A program made the translations under genes and the position numbers. From a virus (lineage: Duplodnaviria > Heunggongvirae > Uroviricota > Caudoviricetes): DNA of 4,709 bases. The DNA lies in IMG/VR virus record IMGVR_UViG_2695420847_000008. One strand, written 5' to 3'. This document shows, piece by piece, positions 1 through 4,709 of the stretch. Every line of letters begins with the position of its first letter. The stretch's first letter is position 1. Below the pieces are notes generated by a model. That model was not told the DNA's origin. It saw only the letters and a program-made list of their open reading frames with translations, and ran no database searches.

Positions 1-126
1 CTGTGTCGGGAGCATCACAACGAGCTTCATGCGGATCCGCTGGCGTTCGAAGAAAAGCATGGTTCCCAGGTTGATTTAATTTTTCGTTTTCTTGATCACG
101 CCTTTGCGACTGGCGTGCTCGGGTAA
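1..126 (+). CDS. 3' end of an upstream phage gene (5' end outside window); Cys/His-rich C-terminal tail, possibly nuclease-like (NinG/YdfU-type position)
   Basis: Frame 1 is open from base 1 to TAA at 124-126. Translation: LCREHHNELHADPLAFEEKHGSQVDLIFRFLDHAFATGVLG*. The CxxHHxxxH spacing is reminiscent of HNH-type metal-binding motifs. Position directly upstream of rusA fits a lambdoid nin region. Family assignment is from memory only. Confidence 0.4.
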   Translation: MCREHHNELHADPLAFEEKHGSQVDLIFRFLDHAFATGVLG

Positions 127-138
127 AAGAGGTGACTG

Positions 139-498
139 ATGCTCATAGAGTTTGTTTTGCCTTACCCGCCGACGGTGAACACCTACTGGCGACGTCGTGG
201 CAGCACATATTTTGTATCAAAAGCCGGTGAGCGTTATCGCCGGGCTGTGGCGCTTATTGTTCGCCAGCAGCGGCTGAAATTAAGCCTGTCCGGAAGGCTG
301 GCGATAAAGGTGATTGCAGAGCCACCGGATAAGCGTCGTCGCGACCTGGACAACATTCTGAAAGCACCGCTGGATGCGCTGACGCATGCGGGAGTGCTCA
401 TTGATGACGAGCAGTTTGATGAAATCAATATTGTACGTGGTCAGCCAGTATCTGGTGGACGGCTGGGTGTGAAGATTTACAAAATTGAGAGTGAGTGA
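139..498 (+). CDS. rusA: RusA-family Holliday junction resolvase (crossover junction endodeoxyribonuclease)
   Basis: 119-aa ORF with ATG at 139 and an AAGAGG Shine-Dalgarno at 127-132 (6-nt spacing). The protein carries the RRRDLDN acidic motif and a later LIDDEQ acidic patch, matching my recollection of E. coli RusA (about 120 aa, same motif positions). Stop TGA at 496-498. Confidence 0.88.
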   Translation: MLIEFVLPYPPTVNTYWRRRGSTYFVSKAGERYRRAVALIVRQQRLKLSLSGRLAIKVIAEPPDKRRRDLDNILKAPLDALTHAGVLIDDEQFDEINIVRGQPVSGGRLGVKIYKIESE

Positions 499-1058
499 GC
501 GTAAATATGATATATCCGGAAATTACAGGCAAAAGCGGCGAACATTTACGCCTGAACACGCTGGAAGCAGTCTGGATCCAGGGGAAATTACGGATGTGGG
601 GGCGGTGGTCGTATATCGGTGGGGGTAAATCCGGAAATATGTTTAACCGGTTACTGGTTTCGAAAAAGCTGACGAAAACAGCAGTTAATGAGGTTTTACG
701 CAGAATGAAGAAATCCGGGCTGGAAAAAACGGAACTTGAGGCATTTTTTCGGGATATGACAAGAGGAAAGCAGAAGAGCTGGTTGTCACATTGTACAGAC
801 ACAGAGGCGTTGATTATTGATCGCGTTATCAGTGAGGTGCTTGGGGAATATCCCGGGCTAATCAATGTTCTCCGGCAAAGGTACGAAGGACGGGGAATGA
901 GCAAACTGAAAATGGCCGAAAGGTTAAATGCAGATCATCCTGATTGGTCGTTGGTTACGTGCAGACGCCGAATTGATCAATGGTTGGGGGTATCTGAATT
1001 TATGTTATATGCCCCCATGCGCATGGCTTTTGTTACAGAGAAAAATGTTGCAAACTGA
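495..1058 (+). CDS. Putative late-gene antiterminator Q (Phage_antitermQ-like)
   Basis: 187-aa ORF from GTG at 495, overlapping the rusA stop in a GTGA arrangement; an alternative ATG start lies at 507. The gene sits immediately upstream of a terminator-containing non-coding stretch, the canonical Q position. The residue pattern (W..W...GNMFNRLL; TDTEALIIDRVISEVLGEYPGLINVLRQRY; RRRIDQWLGVSEFML) resembles QuuD-type Q proteins as I remember them. No search was run. Confidence 0.55.
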   Translation: MSVNMIYPEITGKSGEHLRLNTLEAVWIQGKLRMWGRWSYIGGGKSGNMFNRLLVSKKLTKTAVNEVLRRMKKSGLEKTELEAFFRDMTRGKQKSWLSHCTDTEALIIDRVISEVLGEYPGLINVLRQRYEGRGMSKLKMAERLNADHPDWSLVTCRRRIDQWLGVSEFMLYAPMRMAFVTEKNVAN

Positions 1059-1085
1059 TCAATAAACTGCTTCAATCCGTATAAG
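1056..1085 (+). promoter_or_regulatory. Candidate late promoter (pR'-like): -35-like TGATCA at 1056-1061, -10-like TATAAG at 1080-1085
   Basis: Hexamers read directly from the sequence with an 18-bp spacer, located between the Q stop and a downstream intrinsic terminator as in lambda pR'/tR'. The match to consensus is weak. Confidence 0.2.
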
Positions 1086-1137
1086 CTTCGCAAAGCTGTA
1101 TCGCGAGGCGAAACGCAAGTTTTTTTCGCACAAGGAA

Positions 1138-1159
1138 GCCACCGGAAGGTGGTTTTTTT
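1138..1159 (+). terminator. Rho-independent terminator (tR'-like) downstream of the Q-like gene
   Basis: GC-rich stem CCACC (1139-1143) / GGTGG (1148-1152) with a GGAA tetraloop, followed by 7 T (1153-1159). A weaker stem (GCG-AAA-CGC) plus T7 run lies just upstream at about 1107-1126. Confidence 0.55.
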
Positions 1160-1282
1160 GTGTCCGCGATATACAGTAGCGCAATAAATTCGCTGGTGGT
1201 TATTAATACCGTTCTTTCAGCTTGCTGGCTTTTTCGACAAGAGTTATTGGTGTGTCACGTTAACCGGAAAAGGGAAAAAGAC

Positions 1283-1480
1283 ATGCTAAAACAGCAGGAT
1301 ATGACAGAAACCGCCAGAGTGGTGTTTAATGAATTAAGCGTTACCGAACCGGCGACAGTCGGGGAGATAGCGCAGAATACTTACCTTTCACGCGAACGCT
1401 GCCAGTTAATACTGACTCAGCTGGTTATGGCGGGTCTGGCAGACTATCAGTTCGGTTGTTACAGACGCCTTCCGCAGTGA
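1283..1480 (+). CDS. Small (65 aa) hypothetical protein with a predicted winged-helix/HTH DNA-binding fold (PapI/FaeA- or MarR-like pattern)
   Basis: ATG at 1283 preceded by AGGG at 1271-1274 (8-nt spacing); stop TGA at 1478-1480. The listed ORF start at 1160 (GTG) abuts the terminator T-run and has no RBS, so the shorter start is preferred. Sequence TVGEIAQNTYLSRERCQLILTQLVMAGLADY has the helix-turn-helix plus Gly-containing wing pattern of small wHTH regulators. Homology is not verified. Confidence 0.45.
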   Translation: MLKQQDMTETARVVFNELSVTEPATVGEIAQNTYLSRERCQLILTQLVMAGLADYQFGCYRRLPQ

Positions 1481-1494
1481 AGGCTTTTTTATTT
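1467..1494 (+). terminator. Rho-independent terminator at the end of the small ORF
   Basis: Stem GCCTTC (1467-1472) / GAAGGC (1479-1484) with a 6-nt loop containing the TGA stop, followed by TTTTTTATTT. An identical copy lies at 2179-2206 inside the duplicated segment. Confidence 0.55.
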
Positions 1495-1507
1495 GTGGTA
1501 AATGGGC

Positions 1508-1538
1508 GGCTGGTGGGTGTTAGGGGCACCCACCAGCC
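1508..1538 (+). promoter_or_regulatory. Perfect 12-bp inverted repeat (GGCTGGTGGGTG-N7-CACCCACCAGCC) in the methyltransferase leader
   Basis: Read directly: 1508-1519 is the exact reverse complement of 1527-1538, with a 7-nt spacer TTAGGGG. A second hairpin (CTGCTTT-GCGCA-AAAGCAG) lies at 1580-1598. Both are repeated 712 bp downstream (2220-2250 and 2292-2310). Confidence 0.4.
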
Positions 1539-1630
1539 ATCTGCTCATGCGTTGGGTTCACAAGCAAACCTCAGGCCCACTGCTTTGCGCAAAAGCAGAA
1601 TGAGCCTATCAGAGACAGGCTTAATGATCC

Positions 1631-2350
1631 ATGCTTAATACTGTAAAAATATCCAGTTGTAAGTTAATCAACGCTGATTGCCTGGAATTTATCCAGACCT
1701 TACCGGAAAACTCTGTCGATCTGATAGTCACAGACCCGCCATACTTTAAAGTGAAGCCCGAGGGCTGGGATAACCAGTGGAAGGGCGACGATGATTACCT
1801 GAAGTGGCTGGACCAGTGTCTGGCGCAGTTCTGGCGGGTGCTGAAACCTGCCGGAAGTCTTTACCTGTTCTGTGGCCATCGCCTGGCATCTGATATCGAA
1901 ATCATGATGCGTGAACGCTTCAGTGTGCTGAACCATATTATCTGGGCGAAGCCGTCCGGACGCTGGAACGGATGCAACAAGGAAAGCCTGCGGGCGTATT
2001 TCCCCGCCACAGAGCGCATTCTGTTCGCGGAACATTATCAGGGGCCGTATCGTCCGAAAGATGCCGGGTATGCGGCGAAGGGCAGTGCACTGAAACAGCA
2101 TGTGATGGCCCCGCTGATTTCTTACTTTCGTGATGCGCGAGGCGGGTCTGGCAGACTATCAGTTCGGTTGTTACAGACGCCTTCCGCAGTGAAGGCTTTT
2201 TTATTTGTGGTAAATGGGCGGCTGGTGGGTGTTAGGGGCACCCACCAGCCATCTGCTCATGCGTTGGGTTCACAAGCAAACCTCAGGCCCACTGCTTTGC
2301 GCAAAAGCAGAATGAGCCTATCAGAGACAGGCTTAATGATCCATGCTTAA
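1631..2350 (+). pseudogene. Truncated N-terminal fragment of a DNA methyltransferase (about 170 aa authentic sequence plus about 69 aa out-of-frame extension), created by the tandem duplication
   Basis: The 239-aa ORF matches the intact gene through ...PLISYFRDAR, then reads the duplicated small-ORF tail and leader out of frame (GGSGRLSVRLLQTPSAVKAF...), stopping at TAA 2348-2350. It retains the DPPY catalytic motif but lacks the C-terminal FxGxG AdoMet-binding motif. Confidence 0.7.
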
Positions 2351-2852
2351 TACTGTAAAAATATCCAGTTGTGAGTTAATCAACGCCGACTGCCTGGAAT
2401 TTATCCGGTCGTTACCCGAAAATTCTGTTGACCTGATAGTCACGGACCCGCCGTACTTTAAAGTGAAGCCTGAGGGCTGGGATAACCAGTGGAAGGGCGA
2501 CGATGATTACCTGAAGTGGCTGGACCAGTGTCTGGCGCAGTTCTGGCGGGTGCTGAAACCTGCCGGAAGTCTTTACCTGTTCTGTGGTCATCGCCTGGCA
2601 TCTGATATCGAAATCATGATGCGTGAACGCTTCAGTGTGCTGAACCATATTATCTGGGCGAAGCCGTCCGGACGCTGGAACGGATGCAACAAGGAAAGCC
2701 TGCGGGCGTATTTCCCCGCCACAGAGCGCATTCTGTTCGCGGAACATTATCAGGGGCCGTATCGTCCGAAAGATGCCGGGTATGCGGCGAAGGGCAGTGC
2801 ACTGAAACAGCATGTGATGGCCCCGCTGATTTCTTACTTTCGTGATGCGCGT
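2141..2852 (+). repeat. Tandem direct duplication, copy 2 (712 bp), continuing into the intact methyltransferase gene
   Basis: See copy 1. After 2851 the sequence continues with TGCTGCTCTGGGG (intact gene), whereas copy 1 is followed by the duplicated GGCGGGTCTGG segment. Confidence 0.85.
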
Positions 2853-3401
2853 GCTGCTCTGGGGATAACGGCAAAACAGATTGCAGATGCCACAGGAAAG
2901 AAAAACATGGTGTCGCACTGGTTCAGTGCCAGTCAGTGGCAGCTACCGAACGAAAGCGATTATCTGAAATTACAGTCGCTGTTTGCCCGGGTGGCAGAAG
3001 AGAAACATCAGCGGGGTGAACTGGAAAAGCCACATCACCAACTGGTCAGCACATACAGTGAGCTGAACCGGCAGTATACGGAACTGCTGAGTGAATATAA
3101 AAATTTGCGGCGGTATTTCGGTGTGACGGTGCAGGTGCCGTACACCGATGTGTGGACGTACAAACCGGTGCAGTACTATCCAGGGAAACATCCGTGCGAA
3201 AAACCGGCAGAAATGTTGCAGCAGATAATCAGCGCAAGCAGTCGTCCGGGAGACCTGGTTGCAGATTTCTTCATGGGGTCGGGGGCGACAGTGAAAGCAG
3301 CGATGGCGCTGGGACGTCGTGCAACTGGCGTTGAACTGGAGACTGAACGTTTTGAGCAGACGGTGCGGGAAGTACAGGATTTAATCATTCGTAACGGATG
3401 A
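2343..3401 (+). CDS. DNA methyltransferase, N6-adenine/N4-cytosine family (beta-class permuted; PF01555-like), probably an orphan phage N6-adenine MTase
   Basis: 352-aa ORF. The N-terminal region has DLIVTDPPYF (motif IV, DPPY) and RVLKPAGSLYLF. The C-terminal region has KHPCEKPAEMLQQII...GDLVADFFMGSGATVKAAMALGRRATGVE (motif I FxGxG, AdoMet binding). This order of motifs is typical of beta-class amino-MTases. A middle segment (AALGITAKQIADATGKKNMVSHW) looks HTH-like. No adjacent restriction endonuclease gene is visible. Confidence 0.88.
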   Translation: MLNTVKISSCELINADCLEFIRSLPENSVDLIVTDPPYFKVKPEGWDNQWKGDDDYLKWLDQCLAQFWRVLKPAGSLYLFCGHRLASDIEIMMRERFSVLNHIIWAKPSGRWNGCNKESLRAYFPATERILFAEHYQGPYRPKDAGYAAKGSALKQHVMAPLISYFRDARAALGITAKQIADATGKKNMVSHWFSASQWQLPNESDYLKLQSLFARVAEEKHQRGELEKPHHQLVSTYSELNRQYTELLSEYKNLRRYFGVTVQVPYTDVWTYKPVQYYPGKHPCEKPAEMLQQIISASSRPGDLVADFFMGSGATVKAAMALGRRATGVELETERFEQTVREVQDLIIRNG

Positions 3402-3441
3402 GATTGCGGAGTTAATCATGCGTCGTTATTATTCAGCAATC

Positions 3442-3517
3442 GGCCCTTTAGCTCAGTGGTGAGAGCGAGCGACTCATAATCGCCAGGTCGCTGGTTCAAA
3501 TCCAGCAAGGGCCACCA
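3442..3517 (+). tRNA. tRNA with CAU anticodon, most likely tRNA-Ile2 (lysidine type, ileX/ileZ-like), alternatively tRNA-Met
   Basis: Manual cloverleaf: acceptor GGCCCTT/AAGGGCC, D-arm GCTC-AGTGGTGA-GAGC, anticodon loop CTCATAA (anticodon CAT), T-arm GCTGG-TTCAAAT-CCAGC, discriminator A and an encoded CCA. The sequence closely resembles E. coli ileX as I recall it. Confidence 0.8.
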
Positions 3518-3524
3518 TCACATA

Positions 3525-3601
3525 CCGCCATTAGCTCATCAGGAAAGAGCGCCAGCTTTCGAAGCTGGTTGCGCGGAGTTCGGGTCCCCGAAGGCGGTCC
3601 A
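3525..3601 (+). tRNA. tRNA-Arg (anticodon UCG), with non-canonical features; possibly degenerate
   Basis: Manual fold: D-arm GCTC-ATCAGGAAA-GAGC; anticodon arm CCAGC-TTTCGAA-GCTGG (anticodon TCG); T-loop TTCGGGT; 3' TCCA. Irregularities: A-A mismatch in the acceptor stem (position 6:67), A-C mismatch in the T-stem, and G rather than A at position 58. Confidence 0.55.
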
Positions 3602-3614
3602 TTATCTGTATCCT

Positions 3615-3691
3615 GCGTTGTTAGCTCAGCCGGACAGAGCAATTGCCTTCTAAGCAATCGGTCACTGGTTCGAATCCAGTACAACGCGCCA
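3615..3691 (+). tRNA. tRNA-Arg (anticodon UCU, reads AGA/AGG)
   Basis: Manual cloverleaf: acceptor GCGTTGT/ACAACGC, D-arm GCTC-AGCCGGACA-GAGC, anticodon arm ATTGC-CTTCTAA-GCAAT (anticodon TCT), T-arm ACTGG-TTCGAAT-CCAGT, discriminator G and an encoded CCA. Architecture resembles argU. Confidence 0.85.
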
Positions 3692-3705
3692 CACTTATTT
3701 TCCCT

Positions 3706-3731
3706 GGCTCGCTTTTGCGGGCCTTTTTTTT
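3706..3731 (+). terminator. Rho-independent terminator downstream of the tRNA cluster
   Basis: 7-bp stem GGCTCGC (3706-3712) / GCGGGCC (3717-3723) with one G-U pair and a TTTT loop, followed by 8 T (3724-3731). Confidence 0.65.
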
Positions 3732-3964
3732 AAATATCTCACAATTCAGGCGGTTGACTGTTGTCTGGTTTGCGGGGAGTTTGTTAAAAGAAACTGGCAT
3801 GGTGAATCCCCCTGTGCGGAGGGGCGATCAGCAACCAGGTATATGGGATAATCGCGGATTCAGGTGCTGATACTGAATTCACCGGGAGGCACCCGGCACC
3901 ATGCTTTGCCACAAAAGTGTTGTTTCTGTTTTTCTCAAACTATCATCGTTATCCCTTTATTTCC

Positions 3965-3991
3965 GGCTGCGCATGGCGTGGCCTTTTTTTT
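3965..3991 (+). terminator. Possible second rho-independent terminator in the tRNA-to-nanS gap
   Basis: Stem GGCTGCGC (3965-3972) / GCGTGGCC (3976-3983), 8 bp including two G-U wobbles, with a 3-nt loop, followed by 8 T (3984-3991). Confidence 0.4.
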
Positions 3992-4077
3992 ACGACCAGC
4001 CACTGGCAGATGGCCATCCTGTAATTTGATTCCGGTTCCGGCTTTTTAACTCTGTTCCTGTACACGGGAGAAATTCG

Positions 4078-4709
4078 ATGTCGATTAAACATTATGATGT
4101 TGTCAGGGCGGCGTCGCCGTCAGACCTTGCGGAAAAGCTGACACATAAACTGAAAGAGGGCTGGCAGCCGTTTGGTAGTCCGGTGGCCATAACCCCTTAT
4201 ACCCTGATGCAGGCGATTGCAGCAGAAGGTGATGTGGTGGTCAGTGGTGCAACTGAGCCGGAGTGGTACTACGTCATCGTACTGGCCGGGCAGTCCAATG
4301 CCATGGCTTACGGTGAAGGGCTTCCGCTGCCGGATTCATACGATGCTCCGGATCCGCGTATTAAACAGCTGGCGCGCCGCAGTACAGTGACGCCGGGTGG
4401 GGCTGCCTGCAGATATAACGATATTATTCCGGCCGACCACTGCCTGCATGATGTGCAGGATATGAGTACGCTGAATCATCCGAAGGCAGACCTGAGCAAA
4501 GGGCAGTACGGCTGTGTCGGCCAGGGCTTACATATTGCCAAAAAACTGCTTCCGTATATCCCGAATAACGCGGGGATCCTGCTGGTACCATGCTGTCGTG
4601 GTGGTTCGGCATTCACCCAGGGCGCGGAGGGGACATTCAGTGCGGACACGGGGGCCAGCCAGGATTCGGCACGCTGGGGTGTGGGTAAACCGTTATATCA
4701 GGACCTGAT
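4078..4709 (+). CDS. nanS: Prophage sialate O-acetylesterase NanS-p-like protein (N-terminal DUF1737-like region plus SGNH/DUF303 esterase domain); 3' end outside window
   Basis: ATG at 4078 with GGGAG at 4066-4070. Frame 1 is open to the window end (210 codons, no stop; not in the supplied ORF track because it is incomplete). Translation MSIKHYDVVRAASPSDLAEKL...VIVLAGQSNAMAYGEGLP... contains the GQSN block typical of SGNH hydrolases. Both sequence and position (downstream of the phage tRNAs) match nanS-p/yjhS homologues of O157-type prophages as I recall them. Confidence 0.8.
   Translation, partial: MSIKHYDVVRAASPSDLAEKLTHKLKEGWQPFGSPVAITPYTLMQAIAAEGDVVVSGATEPEWYYVIVLAGQSNAMAYGEGLPLPDSYDAPDPRIKQLARRSTVTPGGAACRYNDIIPADHCLHDVQDMSTLNHPKADLSKGQYGCVGQGLHIAKKLLPYIPNNAGILLVPCCRGGSAFTQGAEGTFSADTGASQDSARWGVGKPLYQDL

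Follow-up and report, generated by a model that had tools for sequence, protein, structure and literature searches.

The stretch of DNA analysed here (the window) is 4,709 nt long, is entered in IMG/VR as virus record IMGVR_UViG_2695420847_000008, and carries part of a lambdoid late region. The genes and elements recognised in it are the following, with coordinates counted from the first base of the window.

139-498, plus strand: RusA Holliday-junction resolvase gene (PF05866; RefSeq annotation)
507-1058, plus strand: gene of a DUF1133 protein, candidate Q-like late antiterminator (PF06576; PF06530 weakly)
1283-1480, plus strand: small 65-aa ORF downstream of the Q-like gene (a TrmB-family regulator in some sources; single copy in unduplicated relatives)
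1467-1494, plus strand: terminator-like hairpin and T-run downstream of the small ORF (repeated at 2179-2206 as part of the overlap described below)
1631-2350, plus strand: spurious chimeric ORF of 239 aa, CTT67672.1 (from the ORF list; protein cluster of two members)
2343-3401, plus strand: intact gene of a predicted DNA methyltransferase, 352 aa (PF01555 N6_N4_Mtase; the RefSeq equivalent is named DNA-methyltransferase)
3442-3691, plus strand: three tRNA genes with anticodons CAT, TCG and TCT (ARAGORN, Rfam; tRNA-Ile, tRNA-Arg and tRNA-Arg in RefSeq)
4078-4709, plus strand: 5' part of a DUF1737/SASA-family carbohydrate esterase gene, nanS-p-like (PF08410; full gene in RefSeq), which runs off the contig end

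The product of 2343-3401 is predicted to be an N6/N4 DNA methyltransferase of family PF01555, given the Pfam match and the presence of both expected motifs, a catalytic DPPY at residue 35 and an AdoMet-binding FxGxG, in the form FFMGSGAT, at residue 309. The segment encoding it is present in about 1,900 complete E. coli genomes. The ORF at 1631-2350 consists of methyltransferase residues 1-170 followed by an out-of-frame reading through the tail of the small ORF, the terminator and the leader, and it lacks the FxGxG motif found further along the full protein. Between the tRNA genes and the esterase gene there is an Rfam match to the STnc100 sRNA, and there are no stx genes. For the leader, Pseudomonas P26 was the only known RNA matched; the match is on the minus strand and below threshold (24 bits, gathering score 36; E = 0.07), and it is taken as chance.

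A repeat in the window file

Comparison of the window with itself gives two head-to-tail copies, 1429-2140 and 2141-2852, which align in an ungapped register with a period of 712. The copies differ at 15 of 712 positions (97.9% identity): 13 of the differences fall in the stretch 1661-1759, another is at 1876, and the last is at the junction base, which is A at 2140 and T at 2852. The register is lost immediately outside the unit on both sides. A repeat of such length and similarity cannot have arisen by chance, and the sole reason that Tandem Repeats Finder missed it is that the longest period it considers is 500. The duplicated unit comprises the last 52 nt of the 65-aa ORF, the terminator-like hairpin, a leader of approximately 150 nt and the first 170 codons of the methyltransferase gene. 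The initial annotation, made from the sequence of the window, had described two such copies and had placed a second terminator and a second methyltransferase start inside what would otherwise be one gene. Both copies of these elements are present in the window, with hairpins at 1467-1484 and 2179-2196, each followed by a T-run. Our verdict, for which the evidence is given below, is that the duplication is confirmed as a property of the window file only, and that as biology it is no real feature.

The junction and the source record

When the 239-aa chimeric ORF was looked up as an exact protein, the one contig found was CYAO01000081.1 (locus L002) of draft assembly GCA_001283385.1, and the window is the whole of this 4,709-bp record. 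The two sequences differ at one base in 4,709, position 2140, where the public record has N and the window has A. The junction base is a placeholder, and the junction was never sequenced. Preparation of the window changed the N into an A, and therefore the join took on the look of an untemplated base at a recombination junction. One untemplated base at this place had indeed been claimed, and the claim falls with the N in CYAO01000081.1. The parts of the record on either side of the placeholder, and the stretches that they share, are as follows.

1-2139, plus strand: left scaffold piece (contig A), with the genes for RusA and the Q-like DUF1133 protein, the small ORF, a terminator, a leader and, as haplotype 1, the 5' half of the methyltransferase gene
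2140, no strand: single-N scaffold gap placeholder, A in the window (N in CYAO01000081.1 and at the join in the sister assembly)
2141-4709, plus strand: right scaffold piece (contig B), with the end of the small ORF, a terminator, a leader, the whole methyltransferase gene as haplotype 2, the three tRNA genes, the sRNA and the start of the esterase gene
1429-2139, plus strand: overlap in the left piece, as haplotype 1 (711 nt in register with 2141-2851, which represents the same locus; 14 differences)
2141-2851, plus strand: overlap in the right piece, haplotype 2 (SNP block 2341-2600)

The left piece is collinear with the unduplicated complete genome NZ_CM136167.1, with no mismatch up to its last base, and the right piece, from reference position 1429 on, runs collinear with the arrangement that lacks the duplication. 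Compared with NZ_CM136167.1 and with the metagenome contig L006, not one base of junction-specific sequence was found on either piece. Since both flanks of the N are collinear with the single-copy locus, the two 'copies' are the overlapping ends of two pieces, which have 711 nt in common (reference 1429-2139). When the second copy is removed from the window, the remaining 3,997 bases differ from NZ_CM136167.1 only at the N and at one SNP; when the first copy is removed instead, the 14 internal differences appear. The initial annotation had proposed a comparison with related prophages, and the unduplicated arrangement was found in the closest relatives among complete genomes. The best complete-genome matches, NZ_CM136167.1, NZ_CM176579.1 and NZ_CP050998.1, align at 99.5-99.7% identity over a span of 3,997, which is 4,709 - 712, and their annotation shows a single small ORF and a single methyltransferase gene.

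These results bear on the two ways in which such a repeat may come about. A genuine duplication should have a sequenced novel junction, and here only an N separates two collinear pieces. A false duplication should have a gap between the copies on one scaffold and, on each side of the gap, sequence collinear with a single copy; the N is at 2140 in CYAO01000081.1 and at the equivalent site in the sister record, and both pieces match NZ_CM136167.1 and L006 end to end. We conclude, with a probability of about 0.93, that the repeat is a false duplication from the scaffolding of a short-read draft assembly, and that its copies are overlapping contig ends placed across a one-letter gap. At the real locus the small ORF, the terminator, the leader and the methyltransferase gene, which is intact, each occur once. 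The truncated upstream gene with a leader of its own, described in the initial annotation, does exist as an ORF in the window; it is an annotation artefact, and the 239-aa ORF occurs only in two sister assemblies.

The second of these assemblies is GCA_001283425.1, in which the full-length methyltransferase protein is also encoded, on the 3,335-bp contig CYDB01000091.1 (L004). The left piece of this contig equals window 1213-2139 in haplotype 1 at 100% identity, and it ends at the same base as the left piece of the window. The join is a single N, in the place equivalent to 2140. The right piece, 100% identical to haplotype 2, starts at reference position 1432, 3 nt later than the 1429 of the window, so that the apparent period is 709 in L004 and 712 in L002. 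The annotated chimeric protein has 238 aa in the sister assembly, against 239 aa in the window. An identical junction in related isolates would be expected of a genuine duplication, and the two periods differ. Joins that are 3 nt apart in sister assemblies, each with an N, therefore do not represent one inherited junction; this is the pattern of contig ends joined by a scaffolder.

The junction was then sought in other collections. A 61-nt probe with the junction at its centre gave no place with at least 80% coverage in 5,426 complete E. coli genomes, 1,306 of which match one half of it, and a 160-nt probe matched the complete E. coli genomes solely as two pieces approximately 711 bp apart, which is the normal arrangement. 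The junction pattern with 0-6 free bases at the join was absent from viral contigs and from JGI metagenome contigs, the pattern with a fixed N was absent from species-representative genomes, and the collection of phage records did not contain the junction. Among approximately 15 billion proteins, the cluster of the chimeric ORF has 2 members, one per sister assembly, versus 4,845 for the normal methyltransferase. Absence from better or independent assemblies, a further mark of false duplications, is seen here in the count of 0 of 5,426 complete genomes and in the unduplicated closest relatives, these comparison assemblies being from other isolates.

The initial annotation had offered illegitimate recombination or template switching as one of two readings. 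In its strongest form, this explanation holds that a genuine 712-bp tandem duplication arose by either process between two related phage genomes, and that only the junction base went uncalled. The order and orientation of the pieces are those that a tandem duplication would give, the arrangement occurs in two assemblies, and the parental contexts at the junction read T then G in both cases (1428-1429 and 2852-2853), so that the common TG is a possible microhomology. If the duplication were true, the late region would exist in a natural variant form, in which a second terminator and a second leader separate the Q-dependent promoter from the intact methyltransferase and tRNA genes. Against this stand the N at the junction base, the sister join, likewise marked by an N but shorter by 3 nt, a difference that one inherited junction could not produce, the failure of either piece to run even one base into novel sequence, the absence of the junction from every other collection searched, and the different pre-existing haplotypes carried by the copies. 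We regard a genuine duplication as highly improbable, and the reading of the junction as a product of recombination is unsupported by the placeholder, by flanks free of novel sequence, by the displaced sister join and by the searches of other assemblies. It is just as hard to credit that the sister isolates really carry a tandem duplication formed between two prophage alleles, with an assembler that failed twice exactly at its junction.

Two haplotypes and the probable origin of the false duplication

Of the 14 internal differences between the copies, 13 fall within 99 nt, a clustering with a chance of approximately 1e-8 (0 of 200,000 simulations). Haplotype 1, represented by the 260-nt SNP block 1629-1888, is found at 100% identity in NZ_CM136167.1 and NZ_CM176579.1, and at 99% or more in 51 complete-genome records. 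Haplotype 2, represented by the 260-nt block 2341-2600, is found at 99% or more in 975 records, and at 100% in UTI89, S88, APEC O1 and others. The metagenome contig L006, which starts at 1213, carries haplotype 2 in a single-copy context with 100% identity over 1,657 nt. A genuine duplication would be expected to show scattered, novel differences, and those seen here are clustered, with both states pre-existing; sequence specific to each of the two copies, as in false duplications, is present in the form of 14 differences, with each haplotype found exactly in other genomes. The differences are those of two pre-existing haplotypes that circulate in E. coli prophages, and not divergence after a duplication, because they are clustered and because each copy matches an existing haplotype exactly.

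Both haplotypes also occur in separate prophages of at least three complete chromosomes, NZ_CP050998.1, NZ_CP027325.1 and NZ_CP013029.1. The second prophage of NZ_CP050998.1 equals the haplotype-2 reconstruction of the window over 1-1971, save for one base, and near-twin prophages of this kind cannot be separated by a short-read assembler. The number of copies of this late region per E. coli genome has a median of 2 and reaches 18 places.

These findings suggest the following course of events. The isolate would have carried two near-identical copies of the region, set apart by 14 sites within the 5' part of the methyltransferase gene and most likely located in two co-resident lambdoid prophages. 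The assembler may have collapsed the identical flanks, so that the shared flank on the left ended up with haplotype 1 and the one on the right with haplotype 2, and read pairs would then have set the two pieces in the correct order and orientation. The 711-bp overlap was probably left unmerged, because it was long and imperfect, and a one-base N would have been written between the pieces, with the haplotypes in series instead of in parallel. The alternative of a misassembly of near-identical prophages, already offered in the initial annotation, is essentially right, although the more fitting description is that a scaffolding step joined two overlapping contigs, and not that the assembly graph was traversed along a wrong path.

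A single N is what SSPACE writes for an unmerged negative gap between contigs. A citable statement of this behaviour was not found in the literature searched. SSPACE and GapFiller join read-pair-linked contigs with N, and as greedy tools they may produce false joins (Page et al. 2016, PMC5320598). GapFiller also re-evaluates contig edges (PMC3446322), and such rework could be the source of the 3-nt difference in the ends of the sister assemblies. The accessions, that of GCA_001283385.1 among them, are absent from the supplement text of PMC5320598, and a full-text search of the literature for the accessions gave unrelated papers only.

The places where the pieces end were also considered. The left piece ends one base before site 2140, which is polymorphic together with 2143 and 2146, many carriers of haplotype 2 having C there in place of T, and the left piece of CYDB01000091.1 begins at 1213, just past a mosaic boundary at approximately 1200-1212 with respect to prophages that have a different antiterminator gene. 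Site 2140 and this boundary are where forks in the assembly graph would be expected. In the 11 relatives examined, no polymorphic site coincides with 1429 or 1432, where the right piece starts, and the nearest are 1417 and 1423. Positions 1429 and 2852 were tried as population-wide mosaic breakpoints and rejected, given that 1,904 of 2,163 and 1,877 of 1,889 records, respectively, align straight through; the SNP at 2140 and the boundary at 1200-1212 emerged only on finer comparison.

The same two forks would also suit a chimeric scaffold, in which the pieces come from two prophage loci with different outer flanks and were wrongly linked via the segment that they share, so that neither locus is exactly the 3,997-bp reconstruction. 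Site 2140 and the boundary at 1200-1212 are divergence points of haplotype-2 prophages of the S88/UTI89 type from the type of the window, and past the last SNP the copies are identical for 263 nt, which may exceed the reach of short-read phasing. Both single-copy reconstructions, however, exist almost base for base, that of haplotype 1 in NZ_CM136167.1 and that of haplotype 2 in L006. We consider wrong linkage of this kind rather unlikely; the duplication would still be unreal under it, and the details alone would change.

Another source of the two haplotypes, with the same scaffolding artefact, would be a mixed culture or cross-contaminated libraries, that is, two strains with one prophage allele each. 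The haplotypes are known with identical flanks from different sources (haplotype 1 from NZ_CM136167.1 and haplotype 2 from L006), such that two single-copy strains could suffice, and the sister assemblies, whose accession numbers are neighbours, may come from one sequencing run. The same pair of haplotypes is nevertheless present in two separate assemblies, its co-residence on one chromosome is documented in three complete genomes, several copies of the region per genome are common, and the contig ends fit a second prophage with other flanks. A mixed sample is accordingly quite unlikely and, given an artefact, the haplotypes probably came from two co-resident prophages. That the duplication is an artefact, whatever the source of its haplotypes, we regard as almost certain.

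Comparison with known late regions and known false joins

The gene order is that of the late regions of Stx-converting and related lambdoid prophages, with RusA, a Q-like gene, the small ORF, a PF01555 methyltransferase, three tRNA genes and a DUF1737/SASA esterase, and the half of the junction probe that lies in the methyltransferase gene has matches in Stx2a-, Stx2c- and Stx2d-converting phages. Unlike Stx-converting prophages, the locus has no stx genes in the interval that precedes the esterase gene. Without the artefact, what remains is an ordinary lambdoid late region that lacks stx and has nothing unusual about it. For phage biology there is no consequence, the locus being a common one (approximately 1,900 complete E. 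coli genomes).

The consequences are for the use of draft assemblies. A scaffold join whose overlap was never merged can be concealed behind a single N in a sequence deposited as a contig, and replacement of N by A in the preparation of a window creates apparent untemplated bases. Two spurious chimeric 'DNA methylase' proteins, CTT67672.1 and CTW41750.1, are already in the public protein databases. In scans of draft assemblies for structural variants, a repeat junction that falls on an N, or on a base substituted for one, should be treated as a scaffold gap.

As with the false joins of SSPACE and GapFiller in the Sanger high-throughput pipeline (Page et al. 2016, PMC5320598), the pieces in the window are joined by N. 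Unlike those false joins, the order and orientation here are correct, and the error consists of an overlap of 711 bp that was not merged. Ko et al. (2022, Genome Biol 23:205, PMC9516828) described false ('heterotype') duplications by three hallmarks: the copies stand on one scaffold and are divided by an assembly gap, each has k-mers specific to it, and an extra, false gene model arises. The case of the window shows those published hallmarks that can be judged from sequence alone: two slightly different versions stand adjacent on one scaffold with a gap between them, both contain copy-specific sequence, and a false extra gene model results. The false duplications of Ko et al. involve the haplotypes of diploid vertebrates, whereas those joined here are most likely paralogous prophage copies in a haploid bacterium, or possibly come from a mixed culture. 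Also unlike the cases of Ko et al., the gap here is one N within a sequence deposited as a contig, and so it went unflagged.

The base at the junction and the open reading frames across the joins

The initial annotation had taken the base at the junction, position 2140, to be untemplated. Base comparison indicates otherwise, given that the A of the window file stands for an N in the public record, CYAO01000081.1, where it is the sole N of the contig. A scaffold gap was thus mistaken for an untemplated base because the N had been replaced by A in the window. Two annotated proteins lie across such joins, the second of them in CYDB01000091.1, the comparable contig of the sister assembly GCA_001283425.1.

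Window 1631-2350: CTT67672.1, 239 aa, named 'DNA methylase' in GenBank
CYDB01000091.1 419-1135: CTW41750.1, 238 aa, named 'DNA methylase' in GenBank

Both are chimeric open reading frames produced by the scaffold joins, and no third member of their protein cluster was found among about 15 billion proteins.

Methyltransferase haplotypes and related prophages

The left-piece and right-piece versions of the methyltransferase 5′ region (haplotypes 1 and 2) differ by 13 SNPs packed into 99 nt (window 1661-1759 versus 2373-2471), with identical surrounding sequence and three resulting amino-acid changes, K11E, Q22R and T23S. This patch looks like a short recombination tract swapped between prophages. 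In complete genomes, haplotype 2 outnumbers haplotype 1 about 20-fold, with 975 and 51 records, respectively, at 99% identity or higher.

Comparison of related prophages also placed mosaic or polymorphic points at about 1200-1212 and at 2140-2146 of the window. Upstream of about 1205, prophages of the S88/UTI89 type, which carry haplotype 2, have a different antitermination protein of 273 aa replacing the DUF1133 gene, and a linked SNP triplet at 2140, 2143 and 2146 marks another allele class of the 3′ half of the methyltransferase gene.

E. coli O39:NM F8704-2 has a second prophage (NZ_CP050998.1 5006090-5014349), in which RusA, the Q-like gene, the small ORF and the methyltransferase 5′ region are nearly base-identical to those of the first prophage of the same genome. 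Past the shared methyltransferase 5′ region its sequence diverges, and downstream of the methyltransferase gene it carries iraM and not the tRNA genes.

Small-RNA matches and tRNA genes

The Rfam matches to sRNA models in the window are listed below.

1507-1571 and 2219-2283, minus strand: sub-threshold match to Pseudomonas sRNA P26
3768-3940, plus strand: strong match to STnc100 (RF02076), a gammaproteobacterial sRNA

The P26 match spans the GC-rich hairpin of the leader and is most likely due to chance, as it scores 24 bits, below the gathering score of 36 (E = 0.07).

The tRNA gene with a CAT anticodon at 3442-3517 is called tRNA-Met by ARAGORN, whereas RefSeq names the identical gene in NZ_CM136167.1 tRNA-Ile; it is presumably ileZ-like, reading Ile codons once modified with lysidine. 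The STnc100 match reaches 108 bits, where the gathering score is 47 (E = 9e-24). It lies after the tRNA genes and before the esterase gene, at the site that holds stx in Stx phages.
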